From Nitrospira sp. (GTDB lineage Bacteria; Nitrospirota; Nitrospiria; Nitrospirales; Nitrospiraceae), in NCBI GenBank assembly GCA_031405355.1, contig JANNIV010000266.1, positions 1 to 62,688 on the forward strand: DNA of 62,688 nt, in the 5' to 3' direction. Each line of letters starts with the position of its first letter. The first letter of the stretch is position 1. The translations under genes were made by a program, and so were the position numbers. Shown here one piece after another: positions 4,426 through 53,905 of this stretch. Below the pieces are notes generated by a model, which was not told the DNA's origin, did not search any database, and saw only the letters and a program-made list of their open reading frames with translations.

Positions 4426-4517
4426 AGGGGTTACGTAGTGATACGTGACGAAGCTGTCCATCCTGTTCTGGCGCCGTGACGGGTTTCGCAACGCAGACGC
4501 TTTTAGAAGTGAGAATC

Positions 4518-5075
4518 ATGAAACGGTATCTGTGGCTTGTCGGTCCATTGGTAATGCTTTGGGGTGCTGAGGCAAGGGCGTCGAACATCGAATTCGAAAC
4601 CCATCACAATTCAAAGACAGACGGAGCCTATACTTCGTCCAACCAAGACGATTTCATCGGCAATTGGCCCCAAGGTACATGGCCTTTTGCAGGAAGTCCC
4701 ACCGATACGACGCGCCATATGTATTTCGCCGGCGCAACTGGGCAGTCGCAGGATGCCGAGGAACACCGCACCCACGAGAGGGATAAATTCAAAGATTTCG
4801 AATACAAGGACCGTGGTCGCAATGGGGATGACGATGACAAGTACAAGGTAAAAGGCGACTATCAGTATTCCAAGCACGATCGGGATTCTGGTCGGGATTA
4901 TGACCGGGACGATAAGAAGGACTATGATCGCGATAAGGATTACCCTAAACATCACGATAAATATCCTAAAGATCACCATGAGTATCAAAAAGTTCCCGAG
5001 CCAGCATCCCTCTTGCTCCTCGGCGCCGGGTTGGCTGGAATCGGGATCTGGAGGAGGCTGAGGAAGATAGGCTGA
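4518..5075 (+). CDS. Secreted, highly charged low-complexity protein with PEP-CTERM sorting signal
   Basis: Signal peptide MKRYLWLVGPLVMLWGAEARA (ATG 4518; the ORF opens with GTG 4476). The D/K/R/Y/H-rich body reads ...DRDSGRDYDRDDKKDYDRDKDYPKHHDKYPKDHHEYQK. The C-terminus VPEPASLLLLGAGLAGIGIWRRLRK is a PEP-CTERM signal. Confidence 0.85.
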   Translation: MKRYLWLVGPLVMLWGAEARASNIEFETHHNSKTDGAYTSSNQDDFIGNWPQGTWPFAGSPTDTTRHMYFAGATGQSQDAEEHRTHERDKFKDFEYKDRGRNGDDDDKYKVKGDYQYSKHDRDSGRDYDRDDKKDYDRDKDYPKHHDKYPKDHHEYQKVPEPASLLLLGAGLAGIGIWRRLRKIG

Positions 5076-10344: not shown

Positions 10345-10373
10345 CCCGGAGCCGTTCACGGACTATCAACAAG

Positions 10374-12746
10374 GTGAAAATTATGACTATGCAAGCCGTC
10401 ACCCCCCAAGACCTTGTGAAGATCGTGCTCCAGAGAAAATGGTGGATCCTTGCCAGCCTCGTCATCTGTGTGACGGCGGCCAGCGTGGCATGGACATTTT
10501 CCCCAAAGAATTTCAAGTCGACGGTCGTGGTGACGATTGACAGTCCGAGAATCGCCAAGGAGTACGTCAAAGGGTTATCGCAAGCCCAGGAGGGAAGATA
10601 CAATGATGACCCGATAGCTATCGTGATACAGCAAGTCGCGCTTGGCCTCACAAACAAATCCATTCTCATGCCGGTTCTTGACACTCTGAAGCCTTACTCC
10701 GGTGCAGAGGCTGAAGGACAATCTTCAGACCAGCAGATGAAACGACTCCGCAAATCTCTGGTGGTTGGAAAACCCAAAGAGAAAGATGGGGCCGTGGGAG
10801 TGGGTGTTGCAATATCGTACACCCACCAGGATCCTCATATGGCTCAAGCGGTGGCGTCGCTTTTGGCTGTGAAGCTGCAGGAAGACAATCTCACGCGCCG
10901 TGAAGGGCTCGTGGTGACCACCACGGAATTTATTTCTGTCGAGCTCGATCGGGTGAAGGGCGATCTGGAAGCCAAAGAACGTGCGGTTTCCGATTTCAAA
11001 AGAGCGTACATGGGAGAGCTGCCGCAGCAGATGGAGTCCAGTCTTCGCACCCTTGACCGATTACAGACGGATCTCACGAATTCTACTGAATCGTTGAACA
11101 AGATGGGGGATCGACTGACCGCGTTGGAAAAGTCGATCAGGGAATTTTCTGATAATTCCCTGACCGGGATTGATCGGGATCGGAGAGTGGGCGACACCAG
11201 GCCGATCGATCCTCGGCTCATCAAACTTCGAGAGCTGAAACAAAAGTTGCAAGAACTCTTGGGAACCTACAAGGAGAGCTATCCGGACGTTGTGCAGATA
11301 CGACAAGAGATTCGTCAGATGGAGTTATTGCTGCAGCTCGATGGCAGTCAGCTCGGTGTGAGTGAGACGGCAGCGGGGAAGGCCGATGAGAATGGTGGAA
11401 TCGGCCGCAAGCAGACCGATCCGTACTTGCGCGAGTTGATGCATGAGCGCAGCGAAACGAAGAGGGAGATCGCCGCGCTCAAGGAAAGGCAAGCCAATAA
11501 TATTCGGCAGATCCAGGAAATAGAGGGTCGAGTCGAGCGTATGCCAGGGAGGGAGCAGCGATTGGCGGTGTTGCTCAGAGACCATGAGAATATGCAGAAG
11601 GCCTATCAATCCCTTCTCGATAAACGGACGAATGCCAGAATGTTGGCGAACTACGAAAACCAACAATTCGGCGAACAATATCGAATTATCGAGGCGGCCA
11701 ATTTTCCCGTTTCGCCGGAGCCTCCCAATCAAATCCATTTCCTGCTTGGCGGTCTTCTGGTTGGATGTCTCGTTGGATTTGGATCGGCCATTGGGGCTGA
11801 GTTCATGAAAACCGGGTTCCGGAGGCCGGAAGATGTCGAAAAGTATCTCGGTTTACCGGTCATCGCATCTATTCCCGCATTTGCAAGTGTGACAAGCGGG
11901 ATCGCCATAGGGCAGTCACTTGCTGCGCTGACAGGTCCAAACATGCTGGCGAAATTGCCCGAGGGCGCGCCTTCCTATCACGGCGATCGAAAGAAGGGCG
12001 TCGGCGGGACGTCTGGTGGGAAAAGATACGGCGGCTCTGTACAGAACTTGCCCGCGAAATTCCACTTGATCGCCAAGTGGGTGCCGGCTTCGCTGATGGC
12101 TGAACAATATCGTGTTGGGTCGACGCGGCTGGTCATCATGACCTCAGAGAAAAGAAATGTGGTTACGTTGGTGACTAGCAGCGTGATGGGCGAAGGGAAA
12201 ACAACGACGGCGGTGAATCTCGCGTATATCCTCGCCCACGATTTGAACAAGTCTACCTTGCTGATCGATTGCGACTTTAAACGCCCAATGGTGCACGACT
12301 ATATGGGAATTCCCGCGGGGCCTGGCATAGGGGATGTGCTGCAGGGGGGTGCGATTCTTGAGAACTGTCTTCATCAGTGCGACGGTCTGCCGCTATGGAT
12401 TTTGCCCACCGGCTCTCCCGCTGTCCGTCCGTCCGGTCTTTCGGGCATTCAGTATGTCAAGAAGTTCTTGCCGGCGCTTAGGGCACGCTACGACCATGTG
12501 ATTTTAGATGCGCCTCCGGTTCTTCCGTTGGCCGACGTGAACGCGCTCAGCGGCTTGGCCGACATGACAGTCTTCGTCGTTCGCGCTGGTGGGACAAGTC
12601 AGGACATCGTGAAAAAGGCGTTGGACACGCTTGGCGAGACTGCCGATGCAGCGGGTATCGTTTTGACGCAGGTGGAAATGGAGTATGCGCCGTATCTCAT
12701 GTACACAGCGGCTTACACAAATGAAGATGTCAGAAGTCACGCATAA
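10374..12746 (+). CDS. Fused chain-length determinant (Wzz domain) and BY-type tyrosine kinase (Wzc-like; EpsF+EpsG equivalents in one protein)
   Basis: 790 aa. N-terminal TM, long coiled-coil periplasmic domain and a second TM (FLLGGLLVGCLVGFGSAIGA). Walker A is SSVMGEGKTTTAVNLA and Walker B-like is HVILDAPPVLPLAD. C-terminal Tyr cluster: YAPYLMYTAAYT. Confidence 0.85.
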   Translation: MKIMTMQAVTPQDLVKIVLQRKWWILASLVICVTAASVAWTFSPKNFKSTVVVTIDSPRIAKEYVKGLSQAQEGRYNDDPIAIVIQQVALGLTNKSILMPVLDTLKPYSGAEAEGQSSDQQMKRLRKSLVVGKPKEKDGAVGVGVAISYTHQDPHMAQAVASLLAVKLQEDNLTRREGLVVTTTEFISVELDRVKGDLEAKERAVSDFKRAYMGELPQQMESSLRTLDRLQTDLTNSTESLNKMGDRLTALEKSIREFSDNSLTGIDRDRRVGDTRPIDPRLIKLRELKQKLQELLGTYKESYPDVVQIRQEIRQMELLLQLDGSQLGVSETAAGKADENGGIGRKQTDPYLRELMHERSETKREIAALKERQANNIRQIQEIEGRVERMPGREQRLAVLLRDHENMQKAYQSLLDKRTNARMLANYENQQFGEQYRIIEAANFPVSPEPPNQIHFLLGGLLVGCLVGFGSAIGAEFMKTGFRRPEDVEKYLGLPVIASIPAFASVTSGIAIGQSLAALTGPNMLAKLPEGAPSYHGDRKKGVGGTSGGKRYGGSVQNLPAKFHLIAKWVPASLMAEQYRVGSTRLVIMTSEKRNVVTLVTSSVMGEGKTTTAVNLAYILAHDLNKSTLLIDCDFKRPMVHDYMGIPAGPGIGDVLQGGAILENCLHQCDGLPLWILPTGSPAVRPSGLSGIQYVKKFLPALRARYDHVILDAPPVLPLADVNALSGLADMTVFVVRAGGTSQDIVKKALDTLGETADAAGIVLTQVEMEYAPYLMYTAAYTNEDVRSHA

Positions 12747-13797
12747 GAGGATTCAGGAAGCGCCCGCGCTTCTGTCCAGCTTTTTTCCTGACCGCGCACA
12801 TGTGTCATGGCGCGCGCCAGGTCTCAAGAAGCGTCTGCTCATTCTTGGGACAGGGCAGTTGGCCGTTGACTTGAGTCAGGTCATCCGGTCGAAACCCTGG
12901 TTGATGTTTAATATCGTCGGATTCCTGGACGAGGCTGCTGAGCGAGTAGGCGAACAGCTTGTCGAACCACGCATTATCGGGACGTATGAGCAGTTGGGCC
13001 AGATGGTTCAGCAGTATCATGTGGATACCATCGCCGTGTGTCTGGCGGAACATCGTATGTTTCTGCCGGTTCAGGCGCTTCTCGATTTTAAGACGATGGG
13101 AGTCAACATTCTTGACGGCCACCATCTGTTCGAAACGGCATCGGGGCGTCTCTTGATCGATTCGCTTCGTCCGAGCACGTTAATTTTCTCGATGGGGTTT
13201 CGCCGCGGGTTGATAGCGCTGGTCTGTAAGAGACTCCTCGATGTGGCGGTGTCTGCAGTGGGATTGGTGGCGTTGACCCCTCTCTTGCTCCTCATTGCGG
13301 CGCTCATACGAGTGGACTCACCGGGCCCGATATTGTACCGCCAGATCCGTGTCGGGTTACGCGGACGGCTCTTCTCGATCTGGAAGTTTCGCTCGATGCA
13401 GCACGATGCCGAGAAGTCCGGGCCTCGATGGGCTCAAGCCAACGACCCGCGCGTGTCCCGCATCGGATGGTGGTTGCGAAAGACTCGCCTCGATGAGCTC
13501 CCACAGCTAGTGAATGTGTTCCGAGGGGAGATGAGTCTGGTTGGGCCGCGTCCTGAACGGCCTGAATTTGTGCAGGAGTTGCGGTTGACTATTCCCTATT
13601 ACGATATCCGGTATACGGTCAGGCCCGGCATAACCGGGTGGGCGCAAGTCAGGTATTGCTACGGGGCTTCGCAGGAAGAATCCCACATGAAGCTGCAATA
13701 TGATTTGTACTATGTGAAGAACTTTTCGCTCTTGTTCGACCTGAAAATTTTGATGCATACGGTCCGAGTCGTGATGCTGGGGGAAGGTGCACGTTGA
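12721..13797 (+). CDS. Priming polyprenyl-phosphate sugar-phosphate transferase (bacterial sugar transferase family, WbaP/EpsB-like)
   Basis: C-terminal catalytic block [26 protein letters not shown]...[25 protein letters not shown]-terminal [10 protein letters not shown] nucleotide-binding-like region. The start overlaps the kinase gene by about 26 nt. Confidence 0.9.
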
Positions 13798-14699
13798 TCT
13801 GTTCTGGCGAGATAGCTCAGGGGAAGTTGAGGCATGTTCTGTCGTTTGATGTCGAGGAGCATTTTCAGGTTGCGGCATTCTGGTCGGCTGCGAGAAGGCG
13901 TGAGTGGAATCAGCTGGGGAGCCGGGTCGAGCGCAATACGAGGAAAGTCACCGAGCTGCTATCGGAGCATTCGACTAAGGCTACATTTTTCATTCTTGGG
14001 TGGGTTGCAGAACGGCATCCGGAAATGGTGAGAAATCTGGCGCAACAAGGTCATGAAATTGCGTCGCATGGGTATGGCCACGAACTCGTTCACACACAGA
14101 CGCCTGCTCAATTTCGTGAGGATGTCAGGCGGTCAAAACACATTTTGGAAGACCTGACTGGCAGGCAAGTTATGGGATACCGAGCGCCGAGTTTCTCGAT
14201 TACGTCTCGAACGAGATGGGCCATTTCCATCTTGATTGAAGAAGGGTATCGGTATGATTCGAGTATCTATAACCGATTTCAAGGCACCCAGGGGATCACC
14301 ATGGCCGGGGCTGGACCGTACCAACTTGAGACCGAGACTGGAACAATTTGGGAGGTGTCTCCGTCAACAATGAACGTCTGTGGATTTCAGCTGCCTGTCG
14401 CCGGTGGGGGATATTTTCGCCTCTTTCCCTATGCCGCTTCGAAAATGTTTCTGGAGAATCTTGAGAAGCAGGGATCGCAGCTTGTCATGTATTTCCATCC
14501 TTGGGAACTTGATTCTGAGCAGCCGCGCATGGATGGGCCGTTGCTCTCAAAGGTCCGTCATTATCTGAATCTCAGTAAGACGGAACAGCGTCTAAGGTGG
14601 TTGCTGAGGGATTTCTCCTTTGGCCCCATCAACCAGGTCGTTCAGCATGTTCGGTATATCTTTGAAAAACAGGGGGACCGTTCACATGCAACTGTGTAA
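13794..14699 (+). CDS. Polysaccharide deacetylase, PEP-CTERM/exosortase-locus subtype (NodB domain + DUF3473-like C-terminus)
   Basis: HVLSFDVEEHFQV, FFILGWVAERHPEMV and GHEIASHGYGH blocks. TTGA overlap with the previous gene. An alternative TTG start at 13827 is possible. Confidence 0.85.
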   Translation: MICSGEIAQGKLRHVLSFDVEEHFQVAAFWSAARRREWNQLGSRVERNTRKVTELLSEHSTKATFFILGWVAERHPEMVRNLAQQGHEIASHGYGHELVHTQTPAQFREDVRRSKHILEDLTGRQVMGYRAPSFSITSRTRWAISILIEEGYRYDSSIYNRFQGTQGITMAGAGPYQLETETGTIWEVSPSTMNVCGFQLPVAGGGYFRLFPYAASKMFLENLEKQGSQLVMYFHPWELDSEQPRMDGPLLSKVRHYLNLSKTEQRLRWLLRDFSFGPINQVVQHVRYIFEKQGDRSHATV

Positions 14700-14769
14700 A
14701 AAGAGCGCGGTCGTCCATCTCGACCCCAACAGCGCGAAAGCGAACGATTCGGGCGAGTCGGAATGGGAT

Positions 14770-15264
14770 ATGAAGTGTTGGTATGCGGTGAGTACGAAAA
14801 TGCGCTCTGAAGTCACGGCCTGCGCCAGCCTCGACCGCTTGGGCATAGAAGTCTTTCTTCCGATGCTGAGGGAGCGGAAAGCGCTTCGTGGAGAGTGCTG
14901 TTTAAGGACATCGCCCTTGTTCCCAGGGTATTTGTTCGCGAAGTTTGACGCGTCGAGTCAGTTGCGAGCGGTGGCGTATGCCCAGGGAGTCAAGAGTATC
15001 GTGACATTCGGCAGCGGCCCCTCCATGGTCGATGAGTCGATTGTTCACGCCATTCGTAGCCAAGCCATAAATGGAGCGATTGAATTCTCTGAGAACCGGT
15101 TTATTCCCGGGCAAGTGGTACGAATACAGGATGGACCATTGTGTGGGTTGGAAGCAGTCTTCGAAAAGAAATTAGATGGGGTCAGCAGGGTAGTGCTGCT
15201 CCTGAAGGCCATTTCATTCCAGGCTCGAGTGATCCTTGACTCTCAGCTTGTTGTAAATAGGTGA
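14770..15264 (+). CDS. NusG-family transcription antiterminator paralog (RfaH/UpxY-like)
   Basis: MKCWYAVSTKMRSE...FLPM...SPLFPGYLFAKF forms the NGN domain. GQVVRIQDGPLCGLEAVFEKK forms the KOW motif. The ORF opens earlier (14620/14686), but the family normally starts a few residues before the WYA motif. Confidence 0.75.
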   Translation: MKCWYAVSTKMRSEVTACASLDRLGIEVFLPMLRERKALRGECCLRTSPLFPGYLFAKFDASSQLRAVAYAQGVKSIVTFGSGPSMVDESIVHAIRSQAINGAIEFSENRFIPGQVVRIQDGPLCGLEAVFEKKLDGVSRVVLLLKAISFQARVILDSQLVVNR

Positions 15265-15443
15265 AATTCTAGATGACGCACGCGTACTTGGTAGGGAGTT
15301 TTTGATCGTGGGCAGGAACCCGACTCTGTGCGTGGCCCTGTCAGTCGTGATGTTGGCGGTACGGGAATCTGTTTCACAATAAGAGATGAAAGCCGGCGTG
15401 TGTCGCCGGAATGGCGGCAGCTTGTCAGTGAGGAGGTGAGAGC

Positions 15444-17288
15444 ATGTATATACTTGGCATTTCTGCGTACTACCACGACAGCGCCGCTTGCCTGGTCCAC
15501 GATGGCGAGATTGTGGCGGCGGCCCAAGAAGAGCGGTTTACCCGCAAGAAGCACGATCCGGGATTCCCCCGCCGCGCGGTGGAATATTGTCTGGCCCAGG
15601 CCGGGATCGGCATCAAGGATCTGAAATATGTCGTGTTTTACGACAAGCCGCTGATCAAGTTTGAGCGGCTATTGGAAACGTACGTGGACTTCGCGCCCAA
15701 AGGAATTCAATCGTTCCTGGCTGCCATGCCCGTGTGGTTGAAAGAGAAACTCCTGCTGCGGACCGTGCTGCAAAAAGAAGTGTTGGCCTGTGCGCCCGGC
15801 CTCAGCAAATCGGCCTTGCCGGAGTTCCTCTTTGGCGAACATCATGAGTCCCATGCCGCGTCGGCCTTCTACGCCTCCCCCTACGAGCGGGCGGGGGTGC
15901 TCTGCATGGACGGGGTCGGCGAGTGGGCGACGACGTCAGCGTGGCTGGGGGAGGGCAACAAGCTGACTCCGCTGTGGGAGATTCCCTTTCCGCACTCGAT
16001 CGGGCTGCTGTATTCGGCCTTCACCTATTATACGGGGTTCAAGGTCAATTCCGGGGAATACAAAGTCATGGGGTTGGCGCCGTACGGAGAGCCGAAGTAC
16101 GTCAAGGCCATCTACGAACATCTGATCGATCTCAAGCCGGACGGCACGTTCAGAATGAACATGGAGTTTTTCAACTACTGCACGGGCTTGACCATGACGA
16201 GCCGGAAGTTCGACGGCATATTCGGCGGCCCTCCGCGTAAACCAGAATCCAAGTTCGGGCAGCGGGAAATGGATTTGGCTCGTTCGATTCAGGAGGTGAC
16301 TGAGGAAGTGATGCTGCGGCTGTCGCGGACGATGCACCGGGAAACGGGCGTGGAGCATCTCTGTTTGGCCGGCGGTGTGGCGCTCAATTGTGTGGGCAAT
16401 GGCCGGGTTCTTCGCGAGGGGCCCTTTGCCGGGATTTGGATTCAGCCGGCTGCCGGCGATGCCGGCGGCGCCGTGGGCGCGGCGCTGAGCGTATGGCACC
16501 AGTATGAGAACCAGCCCAGGATCTCGGACAATGTCCACGACAAGATGAAGGGGAGCTACCTCGGCCCGGCCTTCAGCAATGAGGACGTCGAAGTCAGGTT
16601 GAAAGGGATTGGAGCGGTCTATTGTCGAATCGAAGAGACGGAGTTGTATGGGCGGGTGGCCGAGGAGTTGGCCGAGGGCAAGGTCGTGGGGTGGCACCAG
16701 GGACGGATGGAGTTTGGGCCACGCTCGCTGGGCGGGCGCAGCATTCTCGGCGATGCGCGGAACACGAAAATGCAATCCGTGTTGAACCTCAAGATCAAGT
16801 ATCGGGAGTCGTTCAGACCCTTTGCGCCGTCGGTGTTGCGAGAACGGGTGTCGGACTATTTCCAAATGAACTGCGATAGCCCCTACATGCTGCTCGTGGC
16901 GCCCGTGCTTGCGAAGCGACGATTGCCCTTCGATCCTGGGAAGAAGGAGCTCTGGGGCATTGATCTCCTCAATGTGCCGCGTTCGGATATTCCGTCCGTC
17001 ACGCACATCGACTACTCGGCCCGAGTCCAGACGGTTCATGAAGAGACGAACCCACGCTACTATAAGTTGCTCAAGGCGTTTGAGGCGAAGACGGGCTATG
17101 CCACCTGTGTGAATACGTCGTTTAACGTGCGAGGCGAACCCATTGTATGCACGCCGGAGGATGCCTATCGCTGTTTCATGCGGACGGAGATGGATGTCCT
17201 GGTGATCGAGAATTACGTGCTGCGGAAAGAGGATCAGAAGCCCCTGGAAGGGGACTCGGATTGGAAGAAAGAATTCGAACTCGATTAG
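15444..17288 (+). CDS. Carbamoyltransferase (NodU/CmcH family)
   Basis: 614 aa. N-terminus MYILGISAYYHDSAACLV...AAQEERFTRKKHD, plus the C-terminal domain NTSFNVRGEPIVCTPEDA. Confidence 0.92.
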   Translation: MYILGISAYYHDSAACLVHDGEIVAAAQEERFTRKKHDPGFPRRAVEYCLAQAGIGIKDLKYVVFYDKPLIKFERLLETYVDFAPKGIQSFLAAMPVWLKEKLLLRTVLQKEVLACAPGLSKSALPEFLFGEHHESHAASAFYASPYERAGVLCMDGVGEWATTSAWLGEGNKLTPLWEIPFPHSIGLLYSAFTYYTGFKVNSGEYKVMGLAPYGEPKYVKAIYEHLIDLKPDGTFRMNMEFFNYCTGLTMTSRKFDGIFGGPPRKPESKFGQREMDLARSIQEVTEEVMLRLSRTMHRETGVEHLCLAGGVALNCVGNGRVLREGPFAGIWIQPAAGDAGGAVGAALSVWHQYENQPRISDNVHDKMKGSYLGPAFSNEDVEVRLKGIGAVYCRIEETELYGRVAEELAEGKVVGWHQGRMEFGPRSLGGRSILGDARNTKMQSVLNLKIKYRESFRPFAPSVLRERVSDYFQMNCDSPYMLLVAPVLAKRRLPFDPGKKELWGIDLLNVPRSDIPSVTHIDYSARVQTVHEETNPRYYKLLKAFEAKTGYATCVNTSFNVRGEPIVCTPEDAYRCFMRTEMDVLVIENYVLRKEDQKPLEGDSDWKKEFELD

Positions 17289-17309: not shown

Positions 17310-17705
17310 ATGGAACAAGCAGCCACAAGGAAAGAGCTTCGTCAGTTTGGGCTATTGGTCGGCGCGGTCTTCACCGTGATCGGCTTCTGGCCGCTCGTCT
17401 TTCGGGGCGAGCCGTTCCGGCTCTGGGCGATCGGCCTCGGTGGGACCCTGATCCTGTTCGGCGCCATACTGCCCCAGGTCTTGGGGCCGATCCACAAAGG
17501 GTGGATGTGGGTCGGGCATATTCTTGGATGGATCAATACACGGATTCTGCTCAGTATCGTGTTTTATGGGATCGTGACGCCGATGGGCCTCATCTTTCGT
17601 CTTCTGGGGAAGAAATCGATGCGGCAGACATTTGCCGAATCGAGCACGACCTACAGAGTGGTTCGAGCTCCGCGACCCCATTCCCATATGAAATATCAAT
17701 TTTGA
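17310..17705 (+). CDS. SxtJ-like small membrane protein
   Basis: 131 aa with 3-4 TM segments (LRQFGLLVGAVFTVIGFWPL...). From memory, it sits immediately after the carbamoyltransferase in other loci in the same way. Confidence 0.65.
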   Translation: MEQAATRKELRQFGLLVGAVFTVIGFWPLVFRGEPFRLWAIGLGGTLILFGAILPQVLGPIHKGWMWVGHILGWINTRILLSIVFYGIVTPMGLIFRLLGKKSMRQTFAESSTTYRVVRAPRPHSHMKYQF

Positions 17706-17731: not shown

Positions 17732-17884
17732 ATGGGCGAGTTTGTGATGGAACTCTGGGCTTTCATGAGGGAACGGAAGAAATTCTGGCTCCTTCCCATC
17801 GTTACGGTGTTGGTGCTGCTTGGCAGTCTGATAGTCCTGACGCAGGGTTCGGCTGTCGCGCCATTCATTTACACCCTGTTCTAA
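17732..17884 (+). CDS. DUF5989-like small membrane protein
   Basis: 50 aa: MGEFVMELWAFMRERKKFWLLPIVTVLVLLGSLIVLTQGSAVAPFIYTLF. GGAAGGAGG RBS lies 5 nt upstream. Only the tail of the 245-aa track ORF 17147..17884 is coding. Confidence 0.6.
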   Translation: MGEFVMELWAFMRERKKFWLLPIVTVLVLLGSLIVLTQGSAVAPFIYTLF

Positions 17885-18005
17885 CTCGATTGAGTTTGGG
17901 GGCGGGGTACAGTTCGGATCGCGCGCGTCTCGCTCACGAGGTGTCGCTGTCGATCAACAGGTAATGAATGGGAGTGAGTTGTTATTAAAACAAGGAGAGT
18001 GACTC

Positions 18006-18845
18006 ATGATCACCGACACTCATAAATCCAACGGAAAGATCCGGCACACACGCGATTATATGTGTGAGATCGGCGTGGTTGAACTCCCTCCGCTCACCAG
18101 CCCATTTGATCCAGGCTATGATCCGGTCACGCTGGAGAGTCACCTGGAGCAGAGCAGGCATTTGATCTCCTCGCTGAAAATTTCGATGGCCTGCTGGCAG
18201 GTTGCCAGCGAGATGGCGACACGCAAAAAGGTCGATGCGGCGCGGCGCCTCAATGTTCCCGTCTGCACGGGAGGGGGGCCATTCGAGATCGCTGTCTATT
18301 TCAAAAAACTTCCGGAGTTTCTCGACCTCTGCGCCGACATCGGTGTGACGGGGATCGAAGCAGGGGCGGGATTCATCGAGAATGTTCTGAACCCCCACGA
18401 AGTCGTGCGTCTCGCTTCCGAACGCGGGCTTACTGTCCAGTTCGAGATCGGCGAGAAGCATGGAGGAACGTTTACAGAGGATGTAGTGACGGAACTGGTC
18501 GACCAGGGAAAGCGCTGGCTCGATGCCGGGGCGGGCAAGATTGTGGTCGAAGGGCGTGAGAGCGCGCAAGACGTAGGCCTGTTTGACGGAAAAGGCAAGT
18601 TGAACGCGGGATTCGCGGAGCGGTTCGTCGAGGCCTACGGGATGGACCGGACAATCTTCGAGGCGCCGAACAAGCCAAGTCAATTTGCGCTGCTCAATCA
18701 TTTCGGCCCACGTGTGCATCTCAGTAACGTCCGGTTGGAAGAATTGCTGCGGGTGGAGATTTATCGCAGGGGATTGCACTCCGATGCGTTTCAGCAAATG
18801 ATCTTGCGGCCCAAGGGGCCTGCCCAAAACGGTCTATACGCGTAG
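18006..18845 (+). CDS. comA: (2R)-phospho-3-sulfolactate synthase (ComA family)
   Basis: VVEGRESAQDVGLFDGKGKL and TIFEAPNKPSQFALLNHFGPRVHLSNVRLEELLRVEIYRRGL align block for block with archaeal ComA as I recall it (IIEGRESGKGKGLFDKEGKV; VIFEAPQKSQQVAFILKFG..VNLANI...LETLRRGL). AAGGAGAG RBS. Confidence 0.85.
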   Translation: MITDTHKSNGKIRHTRDYMCEIGVVELPPLTSPFDPGYDPVTLESHLEQSRHLISSLKISMACWQVASEMATRKKVDAARRLNVPVCTGGGPFEIAVYFKKLPEFLDLCADIGVTGIEAGAGFIENVLNPHEVVRLASERGLTVQFEIGEKHGGTFTEDVVTELVDQGKRWLDAGAGKIVVEGRESAQDVGLFDGKGKLNAGFAERFVEAYGMDRTIFEAPNKPSQFALLNHFGPRVHLSNVRLEELLRVEIYRRGLHSDAFQQMILRPKGPAQNGLYA

Positions 18846-18919
18846 GAGGCTGCGGAAAAACGTGATTTATGAATAAAGCGTCAGTGAAATCTTACGTATG
18901 GCACTGATGTCACATTAAT

Positions 18920-19046
18920 CACAGAATGCTCAAAAAGGCCATCCAGCAAGGCCGCAGCGAGCGAAGGGGCGAGGCGTACGCTTCGGTACGTTGAGCCTCT
19001 GAGTGATGCGAGAACGCCGCTGGTGGACTTTTTCAGCATCTTGCTA
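18920..19046. mobile_element. MITE-like element, family 2, copy 1 (between comA and comB)
   Basis: Terminal inverted repeats CAGAATGCTCAAAAAGGCC / GGACTTTTTCAGCATCTTGCTA. Core is CAAGGCCGCAGCGAGCGAAGGGGCGAGGCGTAC-GCTTCG-GTACGTTGAGCC. Homologous copies lie at 44493-44795, 53727-53829 and 62519-62646. Confidence 0.8.
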
Positions 19047-19055
19047 GGAGGGAGC

Positions 19056-19793
19056 ATGAGAGGCTCAGTGGTCATCGACTCATTTCCGGAGAGCGCAGAA
19101 CGGTATCGGGAAGGGTATGCCATTGTCGTGGTGGACGTGATTCGAGCGACGACCACGGCGACTACGGCGGTCAATCTTGGACGGAGTGTGTTTCCGGCAC
19201 AGACGACCGATGAGGCGTTCCGTATTGCGTCGAGGCTCAAGGAGCCGCTCCTTGTAGGAGAATTGGGCGGGAATATGCCTGTGGGCTTCGATGTGAACAA
19301 TAGTCCGGCGAAGATTGCAGAACGAACCGACGTGCATCGACCGATGGTGTTAGTGTCCTCGTCCGGAACGCAATTGCTGTTGAATGCGGTCGGAGCCGAG
19401 GCTGTGTATGCCGCATGCTTTAGGAATTTCTCCGCCGTCGCCCGTCATCTGTCCGGTAGGCATCGTCGGATTGCCGTTCTCGGGGCTGGGACTCGAAACC
19501 AGTTCCGCCGAGAGGACCAGATGGGATGCGCCTGGGTTGCCGAACAGCTGGTGGCATCGGGCTATATTCCTGAGACCGAGGCGACGAGCGAGTATATCTC
19601 CCACTGGAGCGGGAAGAGCCCGGAGGAAGTTCGCGGAGGGAGAAGCGCGGCATATCTGAGGCAGTCGGGCCAGGAAGTGGATTTGGAGTTCGTGCTCAGC
19701 CACATCGACGATCTCGACACAGTGCCTTCCTTGGTCAATGGTGGATTGGAGCCTGCCGCAGCGCGCAGAGAGGCGCTCCGTTTGTCGATCTAA
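19056..19793 (+). CDS. comB: 2-phosphosulfolactate phosphatase (ComB family)
   Basis: VVVDVIRATTTATTAV is the ComB signature. ATG 19056 is preceded by GGAGGGAG. The track start at 19023 lies inside the MITE and is probably spurious. Confidence 0.8.
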   Translation: MRGSVVIDSFPESAERYREGYAIVVVDVIRATTTATTAVNLGRSVFPAQTTDEAFRIASRLKEPLLVGELGGNMPVGFDVNNSPAKIAERTDVHRPMVLVSSSGTQLLLNAVGAEAVYAACFRNFSAVARHLSGRHRRIAVLGAGTRNQFRREDQMGCAWVAEQLVASGYIPETEATSEYISHWSGKSPEEVRGGRSAAYLRQSGQEVDLEFVLSHIDDLDTVPSLVNGGLEPAAARREALRLSI

Positions 19794-19849
19794 TCGGGAC
19801 GTTCCTAATCCAAAAGGCGGAAACCACGTTGCGAATTCAGAATACATCG

Positions 19850-21040
19850 ATGCCGGTGGTGGTCGTAAACTGCAAACTTGGGGCGCTGGCCATCATGCGC
19901 AGTCTGGGAGAGCAGGGTGTCCCGGTCTACGGAGTCGATGCCGACCCCCGATCTCCAGGGATGCTCTCACGGTACTGCAAGCAGAGCTTCCTCTATGGAT
20001 ACGATGAAGCCCACCCAGAGCGGTTTCTGGAAGAGCTCCTGAGGGTCGGGAAGGAAGTCGGACGCACATCGATCTTGATCCCGACATCGGATGAGACCGC
20101 TGTCTTTGTCACCGAGTATGCCGAGCCGTTGAGCCGATGGTTTATCTTCCCTGCTAACGCCCCGAGTTTGATGCGGGAGCTGATCAGCAAGAAAGGGATG
20201 TATGATCTGGTTGCCCGGCACGGGGTTCCTACCCCCTTCACTCTGTTCCCTGAACGGCTGGAAGATGTGGAGGCCTCTCTGCACAGAGTCAAGTTTCCGC
20301 TGATGTTAAAAGGGATTTTCGGAAACCGTCTGCAAGCGCGCGGCAAGAAGAAGATGGTCGTAGTCCATTCGGAGAAAGAGTTGCTTGCACAGTATAAGGA
20401 GATGGAGGAGCCGGGCTTTCCCAACCTGATGCTTCAAGAGTATATCCCCGGGGGAGATGACCAAATCTTCATGTTCAACGGGTACTTCAATGGAACTTCC
20501 GATTGCCCGATCGGTCTCACTGGATACAAAGTCAGGCAGTTTCCGATCCACGTCGGCTGTACCTCGCTCGGAGAGTGCCGTTGGAATGAGGCGGTCGGCA
20601 AAGTGACGATGCAGTTCATGAAAGCGATTCATTACCGAGGAGTCCTCGATATCGGGTATCGATTCGATCCCCGCGACGGCCAGTACAAGGTGCTCGACAT
20701 CAACCCGCGGGTCGGTCAGGCGTTCCGTCTTTTCGTCGCCGAGGACGACATGGATGTGGTCAAAGCGCTCTATCTCGATCTTACAGGCCAGAAGCAGCCG
20801 ATGATCATTCCAAGGGAGGGTCGTCGCTGGATGATCGAGGATTTCGATCTGATCTCCTCGAACGATTATTATCAGGAGGGGACCTTATCCTTTGGGGACT
20901 GGTTCCGGTCATTGAAGGGTTTGGAGGAGGCGGCCTGGTTTAACAGGAAAGACTTAAGGCCATTTTTCGTGATGGCCTGGGGGTTGCTCAAGCGGATGCG
21001 TTCATGGTCAGGCAGAACGATCGCTCGCAGGGCATCATGA
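19850..21040 (+). CDS. ATP-grasp carboxylate-amine ligase (COG3919-like)
   Basis: MPVVVVNCKLGALAIMRSLGEQGVPVYGVD is the pre-ATP-grasp domain. FPLMLKG..., MLQEYIPGGDD and VLDINPR are ATP-grasp blocks. Confidence 0.8.
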   Translation: MPVVVVNCKLGALAIMRSLGEQGVPVYGVDADPRSPGMLSRYCKQSFLYGYDEAHPERFLEELLRVGKEVGRTSILIPTSDETAVFVTEYAEPLSRWFIFPANAPSLMRELISKKGMYDLVARHGVPTPFTLFPERLEDVEASLHRVKFPLMLKGIFGNRLQARGKKKMVVVHSEKELLAQYKEMEEPGFPNLMLQEYIPGGDDQIFMFNGYFNGTSDCPIGLTGYKVRQFPIHVGCTSLGECRWNEAVGKVTMQFMKAIHYRGVLDIGYRFDPRDGQYKVLDINPRVGQAFRLFVAEDDMDVVKALYLDLTGQKQPMIIPREGRRWMIEDFDLISSNDYYQEGTLSFGDWFRSLKGLEEAAWFNRKDLRPFFVMAWGLLKRMRSWSGRTIARRAS

Positions 21041-22122
21041 ATAATTCGATCTTAGAGTTCGAAAGATTGGTCTTGCGATTTCGGAAGCTGTGGGAGGAGA
21101 AGCGGAACACGTCGAGCCAGGTGTACTTCGAGCACAGGGTTTCTGAGTATCGAGAGATGTGGGGTGCTATTGCCCATCATCTTGGAGGAACGTTTCATGT
21201 GCTCGCCGAAGACATTTGGGAACTGGATCTTGGCGATCAGGCGATCCGAATCAACAATCATCAGTTAGAGCTCGACAATCCTGTTACGCTGGCTTTGGCA
21301 GGGAAGAAGCCCCTTGTTCATCTCCTATTGAAGCGGCAGGGAATTGCCGTTCCAGACTACATTGTGTTCCAACGAACTAATCTCACTGTAGCCTATCATT
21401 TTCTGGACCGATATCCGAATGGCTGTGTGGTAAAGCCTGCAGACGGCTATGGAGGGAAAGGGGTCACAACCCATATCCAGACAAGGCCTGAATGCCGGAA
21501 GGCCATCATTTTGGCGTCATTGTATAGCAATGAACTATTGATGGAGCCGCAAATTCCAGGGGAGTCTTACCGGATACTCGTCATCGAAGGAAAGGTGGCC
21601 AATATAGTCCGACGGAAGGGGCTTTCCCTTGCGGGGGATGGTAAAAGAACGGTGATAGATCTGATCACGTCGGAAAACAATCGAAGGTGCGAACAACGAA
21701 GAGAGGCGCTGGCCAATGATCGCGACAGCCGGTTCCATCTCAAACACTATGGGCTTTCACTTGAGTCGATCCCTGAGGACGGGTTCAGCTTTATGATTAA
21801 GAGTGTCGATGAAGCCTCAAAACAAACGGTCGAGAATCGTACGGTCTATAACGAGGATGTAACAGACTTGGTATGTGATTCGATAAAAGGCGATGCGGAA
21901 TCAGCAGCGAAGATTATTCGATCCGACTTCCTCGGGGTTGATGTGATTACGACCGATCCCTCTTTGCCGCTTAAAGAAAGCGGCGGTGTCATCAATGAGG
22001 TGAATACGACACCGGCTCTTCATCATCATTATGACGTGAGTAAAGAGCCGTATCCAATGGTCGGCCTGACAGCAGTGGCCGCTCTCTTGAGGAAACAGTG
22101 TGTGAGTACTGGAGCTCGGTGA
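21037..22122 (+). CDS. ATP-grasp ligase (cyanophycin-synthetase N-domain / RimK-like)
   Basis: ATGA overlap with the previous gene. LLKRQGIAVPDY...CVVKPADGYGGKGV...YRILVIEGKV...INEVNTTPAL are ATP-grasp blocks. Confidence 0.7.
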   Translation: MNNSILEFERLVLRFRKLWEEKRNTSSQVYFEHRVSEYREMWGAIAHHLGGTFHVLAEDIWELDLGDQAIRINNHQLELDNPVTLALAGKKPLVHLLLKRQGIAVPDYIVFQRTNLTVAYHFLDRYPNGCVVKPADGYGGKGVTTHIQTRPECRKAIILASLYSNELLMEPQIPGESYRILVIEGKVANIVRRKGLSLAGDGKRTVIDLITSENNRRCEQRREALANDRDSRFHLKHYGLSLESIPEDGFSFMIKSVDEASKQTVENRTVYNEDVTDLVCDSIKGDAESAAKIIRSDFLGVDVITTDPSLPLKESGGVINEVNTTPALHHHYDVSKEPYPMVGLTAVAALLRKQCVSTGAR

Positions 22123-22204: not shown

Positions 22205-23158
22205 ATGCAGAAAGAAAGAGTCGTCGCTATAGACCTGCTGAGAGTGATCGCTGTTTCCATGGTCATTCTCTCTCATGCGCTCATCACGCTCAGCTCATCT
22301 TGGCCAGGACCGGGTCAGGCCCACTTCGGACTCTTTCCCTTCTATTGGAATACGTGGGGGGAAATTGGCGTCACAATATTCTTGGTCATCAGCGGATTTG
22401 GACTTGGCTACACATATCGGGGGCAGCGGGTAGACTTGGCGCCCTTTGTCCTGAGAAGAGTCATAAGAATTTACCCGGTTTACTATTTTAGTTTGCTCTT
22501 TGCACTTGCCATCCACATCGGGATTGCAATACGAAGCAGCCTCCTTCACGACAGCCCGTTTAGCGTACTCCCAGGATTCGGATGGATGGATTTCATGTTA
22601 GCCCTCACCGGGCTTAACGCGTTTGCTGGAAAGTGGGGTGGCCCTCTCGTTTGGTCGAGCTGGTTTATCGGGCTGATCATGACGATGTATCTTTTCTATC
22701 CGCTTATCGCTCAAGGGCTGAAACGGTCTCCGTGGTTATGCTTGGGCCTGCTTTTCTGCATCAGCTATATTTCGAGAATTGTGGTTGCAGATTCAGAGAT
22801 ATTGTCCGGTAATCAGATGCATTGGTTCCCCCTCAACAGGGTATTTGAGTTTGGTGTTGGGGTTGCACTCGAGCAATCGATCCCACAAAGTGTGTTCGCC
22901 AGTACAAATGCAGGTTTACGGAATCTCGGATTTTTACCGTTCTGGGGCGATCTTTCCTTCCCGTTGTTCCTCATTCATGACCCCTTGCGTCAAGCTATGA
23001 CATGGGAACCTCGAACGCCTCTTTCCTCGCTGTTAGGGGTTGTTGTTTTTATCGCGGCCTCCGTTCTATTTAGTGTCGCGGCCTTGAAATTCAACGAACG
23101 CATGAAGGTTCTAATTGAGGGAAGATATCCTGCTCTCTCGAAATGCGTGATCGGTTAG
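22205..23158 (+). CDS. Membrane O-acyltransferase (acyltransferase-3 family)
   Basis: 317 aa, multi-TM. N-terminal RVVAIDLLRVIAVSMVILSHA is typical of the family. Confidence 0.8.
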   Translation: MQKERVVAIDLLRVIAVSMVILSHALITLSSSWPGPGQAHFGLFPFYWNTWGEIGVTIFLVISGFGLGYTYRGQRVDLAPFVLRRVIRIYPVYYFSLLFALAIHIGIAIRSSLLHDSPFSVLPGFGWMDFMLALTGLNAFAGKWGGPLVWSSWFIGLIMTMYLFYPLIAQGLKRSPWLCLGLLFCISYISRIVVADSEILSGNQMHWFPLNRVFEFGVGVALEQSIPQSVFASTNAGLRNLGFLPFWGDLSFPLFLIHDPLRQAMTWEPRTPLSSLLGVVVFIAASVLFSVAALKFNERMKVLIEGRYPALSKCVIG

Positions 23159-23292
23159 ATTGTCGTGGCGCTGTGTATGAGGAAGAGCTCGATACGCTCG
23201 AAGCAGTAGGCTGATACACGCGGGCATGGTCGTAACGCTGCTCAGGTGGGTTGCGCGGAAAACTTTGGGCTGAATGGCATAGAACGGGAGTC

Positions 23293-24444
23293 ATGATGGC
23301 GAGTGATCGTACGGCATACCGACTTGTGGCGATGGGCGATGTCATGCTGGATCGGCAGGTCGGAAAACATTTCAAAGAAAATCCCCAGGATTTTCAATTC
23401 GGCGAGCTTCAGACGGTTCTCCGAGACGACGATTTAATTTTTCTTAACCTCGAAAATCCCGTTGGAACAAAAGGCTCACCGAACGCAATTCAAGATCCTA
23501 ATGTTACGTTTCGTTGTCACCCTGAGAGCCTTCAAATACTCAAGAACCTGGGCACTGTGGTTGTGTCGCTGGGGAACAATCACATGCTTGACTATGGGGA
23601 AGGCACGCTCGCTGAAACATTGGCGCATTTGGATGCCGCAGGGATTAAACATGTGGGAGCAGGGCGGGATTATGAAGAAGCTAACCGCCCGCTGGTCATG
23701 GAGTTTAAAGGCAAGAAGATTGCTTTTCTGTCCCATGTTTTTATCTATTCTGCCAGCACGAGACGGGCAAGAAGCAATAGGGCCGGTGTTTCAGACTACC
23801 GGATAGGTAAGATCCTGTCGAAGGTTTCAGCGTTAAAGGGGGCCGGGTATCAGGTCATCGTTTCGCTGCATTGGGGCATTGAATATTGCTTCTATCCGCT
23901 GCCCTATCAAAGAGAACAGGCCAGAGCCATGATCGATCATGGGGCTTCACTGATTCTTGGACATGGGCCTCACTACCCTCAAGGGATCGAGAGATACAAG
24001 CACGGTGAGATCGTCTATAGCCTAGGCAACTTTATTTTCGATGAACCGCATCGATTCTCGAATCGGAGTTTCATTTATGGCGTTGAGATTACCGAAGCTG
24101 ATGATCTGGTAAACCGAATGGTGTGCCCAGTCCAACTCGTGCATCATGTTCCTTCTCTGATGAGGGGGAAAGAAGCGGAGCGATTTCAACGGTTTATTCT
24201 TCGCTTAGAAAATGTGTATAAGGGGAAGTCCGATCTGTTCTGGAAGCGGGTTAATAATATTTACTTTCAAGACATCATCAATCGTATTGTGCGAATGAGA
24301 TCCCTCAAATTTGTCTTCTTGCCACCGCTGTCGTTCTACCTTGGTGTCGGCATTCGGAATTATCTTGCGAAGGTGTCAGTCAAAAATATCGCTTCGACCC
24401 TGCAAATGATTTTCAAGCGTCATATATTTAGAACGGCCGGTTGA
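23293..24444 (+). CDS. CapA/PGA_cap-family metallophosphatase-like protein
   Basis: LVAMGDVMLDR...IFLNLENPV...VVSLGNNHMLDYG...HWGIEY...GHGPH motif series of the CapA (poly-gamma-glutamate capsule) family. Confidence 0.8.
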   Translation: MMASDRTAYRLVAMGDVMLDRQVGKHFKENPQDFQFGELQTVLRDDDLIFLNLENPVGTKGSPNAIQDPNVTFRCHPESLQILKNLGTVVVSLGNNHMLDYGEGTLAETLAHLDAAGIKHVGAGRDYEEANRPLVMEFKGKKIAFLSHVFIYSASTRRARSNRAGVSDYRIGKILSKVSALKGAGYQVIVSLHWGIEYCFYPLPYQREQARAMIDHGASLILGHGPHYPQGIERYKHGEIVYSLGNFIFDEPHRFSNRSFIYGVEITEADDLVNRMVCPVQLVHHVPSLMRGKEAERFQRFILRLENVYKGKSDLFWKRVNNIYFQDIINRIVRMRSLKFVFLPPLSFYLGVGIRNYLAKVSVKNIASTLQMIFKRHIFRTAG

Positions 24445-24506
24445 GCCGATGGTCTGTGGAACTGGTTGCCGATAGAAAGCCGATTATTTTGATTCAGTCA
24501 TCCGAT

Positions 24507-25886
24507 ATGGCCAAGAAGATTCTCCTCATCTCCTATCATTTTCCACCCAGTGCCGAAGTGGGCGGGCTGCGTGCTGCCAACTTTGTTCGGCAACTGCCGC
24601 GGTTTGGTTGGGAGCCTTTTGTCTTGACCTTGAAGGACGATTATCTGGAAAAGAAGGATGACGAGAAGCTGAAGTACGTCGGTTCAGTGAAGATTTCTAA
24701 GGCTGGACGGATGCCCACGCTTTCGCCAATCTATTTGGGACTCAAACGAATAGTCCTGCGTCTGTTCAGACCCTCGAATGCGACGGCAAGTATATCGGGA
24801 AGCGGTTCTCGGCCAGCCATGCCGCCCGGTCGCATGGCAGAGACCCTATCCCGGAAACTTCGGCGGTACATCCTGTCCTTTTTGTCGCTTCCGGACGAGC
24901 AGCGAAACTGGATGTGGCCCGCCGTGTTCCAAGCCGTTCGTCTAATTCGGCGAGAAAAGATCGATTGCATCCTGACCTCCAGTCCGCCCTATTCAGTTCA
25001 CCTGGTCGGATGGGTGCTGAAGTGCCTGACAGGCGTCCGGTGGATCGCCGACTATCGTGACCCATGGATGACGGGCGGTTCCAAGAGGATGTACGTCACC
25101 TGCGCGGCATCGTTGAAAATCGAGCGATGGCTGGAATGGAAGATGGTTCAGAAAGCTGATTTGGTTGTTGCGAATACCGAGATGTTATGTGAGGCCTTTA
25201 AAAAGGCTTACGGATCCAGGTTGACAGACCGGTTTATCTGTATCACGAATGGATTCGATGGGGAGTTTTTCTCGAGTTTCGGTCATGTGGAGAAAGATAA
25301 GGTGTTCACGATCATCTATACCGGAACGCTGTATTTCGGAAGGACACCAGAGCCGGTGTTCAAAGCCGTTCATGAGCTGATCGAAGAAGGCCGGATAGAT
25401 GCCCATGCGATCCGGATCAGGTTGGTCGGCCAATGTCAGTTCATCGACGGCCGGCCGATCGATGGAATGGTTCAGGAATATCGGCTCGGCGGGATTGTGG
25501 AGGTACTGGAGTCGGTGTCCTATAGCCGAGCGATCGAGATGGTTAAACAGAGCCATCTCGCTCTCCTGTTGGCGCCCAACCAACCCTATCAGATTCCAGC
25601 GAAGGCCTACGACTATATGGGAACCGGAACCACGATTCTTGCCATGGCCGAGGCAGGGGCGACACGCGATCTAGTTCATTCCACCAAGGCCGGCGCCGCC
25701 TTCAGCACTTCAGATACGGCTGGGATCAAGGAGTTCATTGTCAGGTCCTTGAATCCGGCCGGCGAATTCGCCCAGACCGGGAAGAACGGTGCGCTTGCTG
25801 AGTATGAGATTCAGTCCATTGCCCGCTGTCTTGCGCAACAGCTCGATCGTCTCAGCGGTTTAGAGGCCGAGAGTCATGCAGCTTAA
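24507..25886 (+). CDS. Glycosyltransferase, GT-B fold (GT4-like)
   Basis: MAKKILLISYHFPPSAEVGG N-terminus. The C-terminal half shows the Rossmann-like pattern. Confidence 0.75.
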   Translation: MAKKILLISYHFPPSAEVGGLRAANFVRQLPRFGWEPFVLTLKDDYLEKKDDEKLKYVGSVKISKAGRMPTLSPIYLGLKRIVLRLFRPSNATASISGSGSRPAMPPGRMAETLSRKLRRYILSFLSLPDEQRNWMWPAVFQAVRLIRREKIDCILTSSPPYSVHLVGWVLKCLTGVRWIADYRDPWMTGGSKRMYVTCAASLKIERWLEWKMVQKADLVVANTEMLCEAFKKAYGSRLTDRFICITNGFDGEFFSSFGHVEKDKVFTIIYTGTLYFGRTPEPVFKAVHELIEEGRIDAHAIRIRLVGQCQFIDGRPIDGMVQEYRLGGIVEVLESVSYSRAIEMVKQSHLALLLAPNQPYQIPAKAYDYMGTGTTILAMAEAGATRDLVHSTKAGAAFSTSDTAGIKEFIVRSLNPAGEFAQTGKNGALAEYEIQSIARCLAQQLDRLSGLEAESHAA

Positions 25887-44417: not shown

Positions 44418-44492
44418 TCGGGCCACGTTTGAAAAAGATCGAACAATGTCTGAGAACCAACTGGAGAAAGACTTGATTAATCGCGAATTTCT

Positions 44493-53829: not shown

Positions 53830-53905
53830 AAAAGTGGGAAATGTGGCCGGTTAGTGATTGCAACTGCGACTGAGAAGCCGAAAACGGTGGAGAACGCTGG
53901 CTGAT

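Follow-up and report, generated by a model that had tools for sequence, protein, structure and literature searches.

Known ComA/ComB systems and the Nitrospira locus

In coenzyme M (CoM) biosynthesis, phosphoenolpyruvate (PEP) and sulfite are converted to phosphosulfolactate and then to sulfolactate (PMC9457059), reactions assigned to phosphosulfolactate synthase (ComA) and 2-phosphosulfolactate phosphatase (ComB). In this study, a comA-comB pair was analysed in an exopolysaccharide (EPS) locus of Nitrospira sp. (GCA_031405355.1, contig JANNIV010000266.1). The stretch analysed, called the window, comprises 62,688 nt, and its approximately 49 open reading frames (ORFs) were screened against Pfam and NCBIfam. 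The new observation is that the pair forms the core of a conserved comA-comB-AG1 cassette, in which AG1 is an ATP-grasp ligase encoded directly downstream of comB.

The archaeal ComA and ComB of the CoM pathway (MJ0255/MJ1140; Protein Data Bank (PDB) entry 1qwg) belong to the same two families and folds as the window proteins, with the catalytic Lys and the acidic and basic barrel residues conserved. Unlike the archaeal pathway, the window has no ComC, ComD or ComE, its ComA is of another clade with remodelled loops, and the cassette is coupled to an ATP-grasp ligase in glycan loci of non-methanogenic bacteria. Bacillus subtilis YitD and YitC (1u83) likewise represent an adjacent bacterial ComA and ComB, which together yield free sulfolactate as their final product. 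YitD, however, groups with the archaeal enzymes, whereas the window shows neither a sporulation context nor sulfate-activation genes and its pair has a dedicated downstream ligase; a Bacillus-type spore sulfolactate system was not recognised in the window. The CoM pathway XcbB-E of Xanthobacter autotrophicus Py2 also starts with a ComA homologue, XcbB (PMC9457059), and the Xanthobacter plasmid homologue has 27.5% identity. In contrast to the window, the Xcb pathway removes the phosphate by an aspartase/fumarase-type enzyme and operates without ComB. No match to the Ldh_2 (ComC), TPP-enzyme (ComDE) or XcbC-E families was found among the window ORFs, in agreement with a first-pass annotation of the DNA letters, which had seen no comC/comDE-like genes. 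CoM biosynthesis was rejected, and CoM is not the end product, because these genes are not in the window.

The nearest functional analogy is the misNOPQ cassette of misaugamycin, a type V glycopeptide antibiotic whose N-linked 2-sulfoacetyl tail has been proposed to originate from a homologue of phosphosulfolactate synthase (PMC9136965). There, activation proceeds through an acyl-CoA ligase and an acyl carrier protein (ACP), a glyoxalase-like enzyme takes part, and ComB and ATP-grasp genes are lacking; the acceptor is a peptide and the group a C2 sulfoacetyl, whereas for the window a glycan acceptor and a C3 sulfolactyl group are proposed. The Staphylococcus aureus type 1 capsule bears a sulfonate substituent, taurine in amide linkage to N-acetylgalactosaminuronic acid (PMC12043029). 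In that case taurine is the amine placed onto a sugar carboxylate and is not derived from ComA/ComB, and the polarity of the amide is opposite. Neither sulfolactate in a glycan nor a ComA-ComB-ATP-grasp cassette was found reported in the searchable full-text literature. The first-pass annotation had not been aware of any description of such a sulfonated EPS substituent; this applies to the sulfolactyl group, whereas the taurine amide and misaugamycin are precedents.

A conserved comA-comB-AG1 cassette

A scan of species-representative genomes yielded 67 loci (denoted by L numbers), all in metagenome-assembled genomes (MAGs); 63 encode a full ComA and 58 have enough downstream sequence. ComB is present in 63 of the 63 loci with full ComA. 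AG1 lies within 8 kb in 53 of 58 loci, and in at least 40 it is immediately 3' of comB. The carriers represent about 11 phyla (Nitrospirota, Acidobacteriota, Zixibacteria, Desulfobacterota, Chloroflexota, Gemmatimonadota, Gamma- and Alphaproteobacteria, Actinomycetota, Planctomycetota and Myxococcota). Most loci have the three genes on one strand, separated by -4 to about 60 nt, and AG1 follows comB with a spacing typical of translational coupling. In a reciprocal look-up, all three independently picked AG1 homologues adjoin ComB, and on contigs that reach far enough ComA is found upstream. The inference in the first-pass annotation that what ComA and ComB make is used by one of the carboxylate-amine ligases nearby gains independent support from this survey.

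All window proteins were compared with the loci and neighbouring ORFs were clustered. In nearly all loci the cassette is surrounded by genes for glycosyltransferases, flippases or deacetylases. Homologues of the glycosyltransferase, Wzx, Wzy, priming or export genes of the window occur in at least 42 of 53 long loci, a Wzx flippase gene stands immediately 3' of AG1 in two further loci, L035 and L036, and deacetylases are frequent neighbours of the cassette. The remaining window genes, the carbamoyltransferase included, are common only to the nearest Nitrospira relatives. PEP-CTERM components accompany the cassette in some loci and are missing in others; it is a portable module for tailoring and does not belong to the XrtA system. 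Comparative evidence for the coupling of ComAB, ligase and glycan genes is strong, and the overall interpretation given below is plausible.

The closest genome match is Nitrospira sp. RSF3 (L007), with a 99% identical ComA. The gene order is AG1-AG2-AcylT3-PGA_cap-GT4 in the window and AG1-AcylT3-LarA-like (444 aa)-AG2-GT4 in RSF3, so that the window has a CapA-like gene where RSF3 has the LarA-like gene. The sole 'archaeal' carrier, L011, is a 4.4-kb contig labelled Candidatus Bathyarchaeota with a ComA 75% identical to the bacterial one and is probably mis-binned.

A cultured carrier of the full cassette was found neither among the genome loci nor in plasmid searches, the latter returning AG1 relatives of about 25% identity in Bacillus and Priestia. 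The linear plasmid NZ_CP108119.1 of Streptomyces sp. NBC_00211 (L076, 357027-357824) and five sister plasmids, all from cultured strains, encode a 51% identical ComA with the same non-canonical type of signature (SMATWL, GLHSDA). It is located in a nonribosomal peptide synthetase/polyketide synthase cluster together with SbnA/SbnB-like proteins, an ArgH-like lyase, an ATP-grasp protein, a kinase and a glycosyltransferase, and without ComB or AG1. This cluster may direct the synthesis of a sulfonated natural product.

The ComA-like and ComB-like proteins

The window ComA belongs to the PF02679 ComA family (E=9.6e-46, 156.6 bits against a cutoff of 25.2, profile positions 13-243 of 243). It aligns over 234 residues with M. 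jannaschii ComA (1qwg, E=1e-27), and its AlphaFold model (pLDDT 81.7) superimposes in Foldseek with a TM score of 0.84 on 1qwg and 0.80 on YitD (1u83), while the next-best matches stay below 0.57, identifying an (alpha/beta)8 barrel of this fold. ComB matches PF04029 over the full length of the family (E=5.6e-39, 134 bits, cutoff 26.4), PDB entry 2yyv (E=6e-22) and also 1vr0, and retains the motifs D-x-x-R-A-T, GE, NSP, G-T, N and ED. Its ORF spans 19023-19793; the ATG at 19056, which lies behind a GGAGG site, was preferred as start over the GTG at 19023. These Pfam, PDB and model matches bear out the family assignments of the first-pass annotation. Of the motifs on which it had relied, VVEGRESAQDVGLFDGKGK (EGRES at 18549-18563), IFEAPNKPSQ and VVDVIRATTT (19128-19157) are present, and the one given as LE..RRGL reads VEIYRRGL, with V as the first letter.

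The charged and catalytic-face residues common to M. jannaschii ComA and YitD were assessed in an alignment of both with 63 clade members. All are kept in the window ComA: K58, E94, E118, E147, K151 (equivalent to MJ K137), E182, R184, E185, E219, K223, Q226, N241, E251, R254 and D260. Across the 63 members they are at least 95% conserved. The catalytic role of K137 in M. jannaschii ComA was reportedly described by Wise and co-workers in 2003. The clade of EPS-locus ComA proteins, termed the EPS clade, has an invariant signature, in which KISMACWQ (residues 58-65) replaces K-F-GWGTSA, GGG replaces GGT and E-A-G replaces E-I-S; G91, G120, H152, W171, A187 and H258 (for R244) also belong to it.

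AG1, AG2 and a LarA homologue

ATP-grasp enzymes convert a carboxylate to an acyl phosphate, and the acyl group is then accepted by an amine or, less often, by a hydroxyl. The AlphaFold2 model of AG1 (pLDDT 84.8, pTM 0.86) has a three-domain ATP-grasp fold, and its top 50 Foldseek matches are all ATP-grasp enzymes (E ~1e-15, TM ~0.6). The nearest folds are PurK, PurT, CPS-like proteins and L-amino-acid ligases, and the three-domain fold is also shared with COG3919 proteins of the D-aspartate ligase type; identity to the solved ATP-grasp enzymes is 11-17%. NCBIfam gave weak ATP-grasp matches only, and a profile search against the PDB marginal ones. Homologues carry the JGI labels 'ATP-grasp carboligase' and 'D-aspartate ligase', which are labels with no curated model matched. 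The family contains 3379 proteins at E<=1e-5 in a word-indexed search. AG1 is proposed to be the ligase that consumes the product of ComA and ComB.

A further ATP-grasp protein, AG2, matches NF010623 below its cutoff (E=5e-43) and CphA1 in the PDB (7wac, E=1.5e-20). In 25 of 58 loci its gene is no more than 8 kb away from comA, and it can precede the pair, follow it or stand between comA and comB. Homologues of the window GT4 glycosyltransferase (about 470 aa) recur downstream of the cassette in about 15-17 loci and in L001, L005, L075 and a JGI contig.

In 14 loci, including those of RSF3, Zixibacteria, Desulfobacterota and Acidobacteriota, a LarA homologue absent from the window is found inside the cassette (in L010, for example, at 13999-15357). 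Among solved structures it is closest to Mar2, a malate racemase (E=1e-34), with which its His/Lys/His nickel-pincer motif can be aligned. The sole difference between malate and sulfolactate is the group at C3, a carboxylate in the former and a sulfonate in the latter. Because the homologue is nearest to a malate racemase and malate is the carboxylate isostere of sulfolactate, it lends independent support to an intermediate that is a 2-hydroxy acid with an anionic group at C3.

Proposed pathway and alternatives

The reading to which we lean, with a little more than an even chance of being correct, is that sulfolactate is made in the cytoplasm and that an ATP-grasp enzyme joins it to an amine within the repeat unit. 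The ComA-like enzyme would add sulfite to PEP to give (2R)-2-phospho-3-sulfolactate, which the ComB-like phosphatase would dephosphorylate to (R)-sulfolactate; in those lineages that have it, the LarA-type nickel-pincer racemase could invert C2. AG1 would then activate the sulfolactate carboxylate as an acyl phosphate and couple it to an amine on a nucleotide-sugar, or on the lipid-linked repeat unit prior to its flipping by Wzx, the amine probably being provided by an amino sugar or an amino-acid side branch. Where present, AG2 might add or extend an amino-acid linker, and S-adenosylmethionine (SAM) methyltransferases might cap a hydroxyl or carboxyl group. The predicted outcome is a permanently anionic sulfonate on the EPS. 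Because of the ATP dependence and the adjacent flippases, the modification is expected to be cytoplasmic and to precede export. It is a more tentative proposition, with slightly less than an even chance, that the three-gene cassette in at least 11 bacterial phyla, often joined by a malate racemase-like LarA and methyltransferases, puts a sulfolactyl group, a C-sulfonated hydroxy-acyl substituent, on exopolysaccharides, which would then constitute a new class of sulfonated glycans and an unrecognised source of sulfolactate and organosulfonates in soils, sediments, groundwater and nitrifying biofilms.

Several observations weigh against the proposed pathway. ComA scores 147 bits against the 280-bit cutoff of the equivalog TIGR03849 and is thus a member of the family and not of its validated subgroup. 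Like ComB, it stays far below all NCBIfam equivalog cutoffs. Its sequence identity amounts to 29.5% with M. jannaschii ComA and to 27% with YitD, two proteins that have 43% identity to each other, and it keeps 42 of the 81 positions identical between these two. In a neighbour-joining tree of full-length representatives, drawn from a 1.84-billion-protein library in which the whole family is small (796 clusters), the window protein and all EPS-locus ComA proteins form a separate tight clade, whereas M. jannaschii ComA and YitD are together in one 'canonical' clade; the window ComA hence lies outside the clade that holds both the CoM and the Bacillus enzymes. Residues are exchanged right after beta-1 (GWGTSA to SMACWQ), beta-2 (T to G) and beta-3 (S to G), and R244 is replaced by H. 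According to the model, the changed loops line the active site, so that the substrate or the nucleophile could differ. ComB scores at best 100 against 235 bits with its equivalog models (TIGR00298, PRK00886; for TIGR00298, 86 against 175) and, compared with two solved homologues, has the subfamily changes N96 to S, H188 to S and R191 to Y. AG1 has no close characterised relative, the carriers are all MAGs, and comA and comB are held apart here by a structured repeat. Finally, a motif scan of the window and 75 loci, too coarse to be informative, revealed none of the motifs of ATP-sulfurylase, APS-kinase or PAPS-reductase at distances of up to 10 kb; a single ECGLH match at position 2500 of L036 has a stop codon in its flanking translation and no evident gene, and is spurious.

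In a first alternative, ComA would use a nucleophile other than sulfite, or another enol-phosphate, and ComB would release a different 3-substituted 2-hydroxy acid for ligation by AG1. The separate clade, the altered loops and R244, the scores below the equivalogs, the changed ComB pocket and the lack of nearby sulfur-assimilation genes all favour such chemistry. M. jannaschii ComB is also said, in work of Graham and co-workers from 2001, to hydrolyse 2-phospholactate, 2-phosphoglycolate and 2-phosphomalate. Nevertheless, we consider this alternative unlikely: the charged catalytic-face residues common to M. jannaschii ComA and YitD are all kept, we know of no other activity among PF02679 members, and a neighbour resembling malate racemase is in keeping with a three-carbon acid that is anionic at C3. 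Moreover, sulfite can be supplied by housekeeping assimilation, so that sulfur genes near the cassette are not needed. That the window ComA would add sulfite to PEP is a reasonable inference for a clade that lies outside the validated enzymes, with identities of 27-30% and three remodelled loops. The first-pass annotation had envisaged sulfolactate or a related PEP-derived acid on an amino sugar; the coupling to a ligase is supported, whereas the product may not be sulfolactate, the clade being outside the validated enzymes.

In a second alternative sulfolactate is made, but serves as the nucleophile: AG1 or AG2 could activate the carboxylate of a uronic or amino acid and esterify it with the 2-OH of sulfolactate, giving an O-linked ester, a depsi-linkage of the VanA type. 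ATP-grasp enzymes can form esters, as D-Ala-D-lactate ligases do, and AG2 weakly matches D-Ala-D-Lac ligase models; UDP-sugar dehydrogenase genes are found in the window and adjoin the cassette in L032, L038, L056 and L063. This arrangement is nonetheless quite improbable, since the ATP-grasp outcome is usually an amide, deacetylases are common neighbours that favour an amine acceptor, and a DegT aminotransferase gene is immediately 3' of AG1 in L030 and L057. An even smaller likelihood is given to a pathway whose product, either free sulfolactate or a sulfonate derived from it such as cysteate, CoM or an osmolyte, has nothing to do with the polymer, its position in the EPS locus being incidental. 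The described roles of ComA and ComB, cofactor synthesis and spore sulfolactate, are of this kind (PMC9457059), a few loci lack recognisable glycan genes, and in L066, which is without AG1, genes for a class-V aminotransferase and a PGDH-like 2-hydroxyacid dehydrogenase come after the pair. Against it, the synteny with AG1 and glycan genes over about 11 phyla is hard to ascribe to chance, the comA-comB-AG1 spacing is tight and resembles translational coupling, and neither ComC/DE nor XcbC-E is in the window.

If the polymer does bear sulfolactyl groups, these would represent a new glycan modification with a pH-independent negative charge, which would matter for hydration, metal binding and the cohesion of flocs and biofilms in Nitrospira and in many uncultured soil and sediment lineages. 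Nitrospira are key nitrifiers in water treatment. ComA and ComB would be extended from cofactor and spore metabolism to cell-surface chemistry, the large orphan ATP-grasp family of AG1 would gain a function, a sulfolactate racemase would be predicted among LarA homologues, and sulfolactate would have a widespread environmental origin.

The exopolysaccharide operon

The plus strand carries every gene from 5724 to 58190 with short gaps and reads as a single long operon (Table 1). The locus is an XrtA/PEP-CTERM-type exopolysaccharide operon, as demonstrated by matches to TIGR03019 (PEP-CTERM FemAB protein, 383 against a cutoff of 260) and TIGR03006 (XrtA-type polysaccharide deacetylase, 351 against 276). 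The Wzz/kinase, AsnB and outer-membrane-protein markers of the XrtA system matched below cutoff, and the exosortase (XrtA) family had no match among the window ORFs; its gene may be located outside the 62.7 kb. Export and assembly are represented by two Poly_export/SLBB proteins, a Wzz/tyrosine kinase, a Bac_transf priming transferase, two Wzx and a Wzy, accompanied by two AsnB amidotransferases, several GT2 and GT4 glycosyltransferases and four SGNH/GDSL proteins. The polysaccharide context perceived in the first-pass annotation is thereby confirmed. Two sizeable ORFs of the operon, 41846-43210 (454 aa) and 51227-52159 (310 aa), are without a Pfam or NCBIfam match, and a 280-aa antisense ORF at 17985-18827 was dismissed as spurious.

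Table 1. Positions of the window features referred to in the text
Feature	Position	Strand	Family or remark
Two PEP-CTERM proteins	750-1427 and 4476-5075		PF07589
UDP-sugar dehydrogenase	5724-7025	+	
NusG paralogue	14620-15264	+	Operon-specific antiterminator type; PF02357, E=4e-15
Carbamoyltransferase; 131-aa ORF; DUF5989 protein	15444-17288; 17310-17705; 17732-17884	+	PF02543, PF16861, PF19451
comA-like gene	18006-18845	+	279 aa; divergent phosphosulfolactate-synthase-family TIM barrel, EPS clade
Structured repeat element	18850-19051		About 200 nt, between comA and comB
comB-like gene	19056-19793	+	2-phosphosulfolactate phosphatase family; likely start ATG 19056
AG1	19829-21040	+	403-aa ATP-grasp ligase, no Pfam family; third cassette member
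AG2	21004-22122	+	ATP-grasp resembling the cyanophycin-synthetase Asp-adding G domain and the GshAB ligase domain
Acyl_transf_3 acyltransferase	22205-23158	+	Pfam
PGA_cap/CapA-like protein	23251-24444	+	Pfam
GT4 glycosyltransferase	24441-25886	+	481 aa, GT4 N-domain; PF13439, PF13579
Third ATP-grasp gene	26982 (start)		
PaaK-like adenylating enzyme	28294 (start)		

The NusG paralogue upstream suggests read-through transcription of the long operon including comA and comB, and a promoter and terminator scan of 13.5-27 kb gave no signal above shuffled background. The carbamoyltransferase module has homologues in the four closest Nitrospira loci only, and its link to the cassette is not conserved. 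The first-pass annotation had set the pair between this module and three ATP-grasp/adenylating ligases. The downstream genes are in fact those of three ATP-grasp proteins and one PaaK-like protein, and only the ATP-grasp genes at 19829 and 21004 adjoin comB. The acyltransferase and PGA_cap genes are local insertions between AG2 and GT4, likewise without a conserved link to the cassette: PGA_cap homologues occur in five loci only, and the acyltransferase has no tblastn homologue at E<=1e-10, although by blastp labels such a gene follows AG1 in L007-L010, the sister Nitrospira loci.

A repeat element between comA and comB

The comA-comB gap measures 210 nt in this genome, whereas in the sister Nitrospira MAGs L007, L008 and L009 the comB ATG lies within a few bases of the comA stop codon. 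The element that fills the gap is flanked by a 7-bp direct repeat, TAGGAGG (18843-18849 and 19045-19051), which regenerates the comB ribosome-binding site. Diverged copies are found in other operon gaps, at 53726-53830 and, on the minus strand, at 44491-44867 and 62518-62638. The RNA fold of the element has a z score of -3.5, and no Rfam family matched. A riboswitch or small RNA in the gap was rejected in view of the missing Rfam match and the nature of the element, a repeated structured insertion with a target-site duplication. It is specific to this genome and outside the ancestral cassette, and looks like a mobile repeat of the miniature inverted-repeat transposable element or repetitive extragenic palindrome type. 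The comA-comB junction seems to be a recurrent insertion site, because in L001 (Nitrospira sp. GCA_029194665) a complete insertion sequence with a DDE_Tnp_1 transposase on the opposite strand occupies the same junction (10972-11941).

Variant loci and further companions

SAM methyltransferase genes accompany the cassette in 27 loci and belong to two families found in disjoint sets of loci. L075 (GCA_040961345, 2431-11532) encodes in order ComA, a B12-binding radical-SAM protein, a LarA-like protein, AG2, ComB, AG1, a CheR-type methyltransferase and GT4. The position of the radical-SAM methylase, after ComA and before the racemase, is a hint that some lineages may C-methylate the acid.

In L066, a Solirubrobacterales MAG, the ComA-ComB pair is followed by two unknown ORFs, the class-V aminotransferase and the PGDH-like D-2-hydroxyacid dehydrogenase (9662-16470). 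These genes could convert sulfolactate through sulfopyruvate to cysteate, or could be an unrelated serA/serC pair.

A block 3' of the cassette that encodes a MaoC-dehydratase/short-chain dehydrogenase (SDR) fusion, an Antibiotic_NAT-like N-acyltransferase, one or two ACPs, KAS III and FabD is found in L005 (15965-20852), L075 (12235-17269) and a JGI contig, and the MaoC/SDR gene alone in L001 (19217 to the locus end). The block points to a second N-acylation in these polymers, by which an amino sugar would receive a fatty acyl group. In L060, a Gammaproteobacteria MAG, a protein of 600 aa whose N-terminal domain matches FkbH (E=2.7e-9) is encoded three genes 3' of the cassette (10268-12070).

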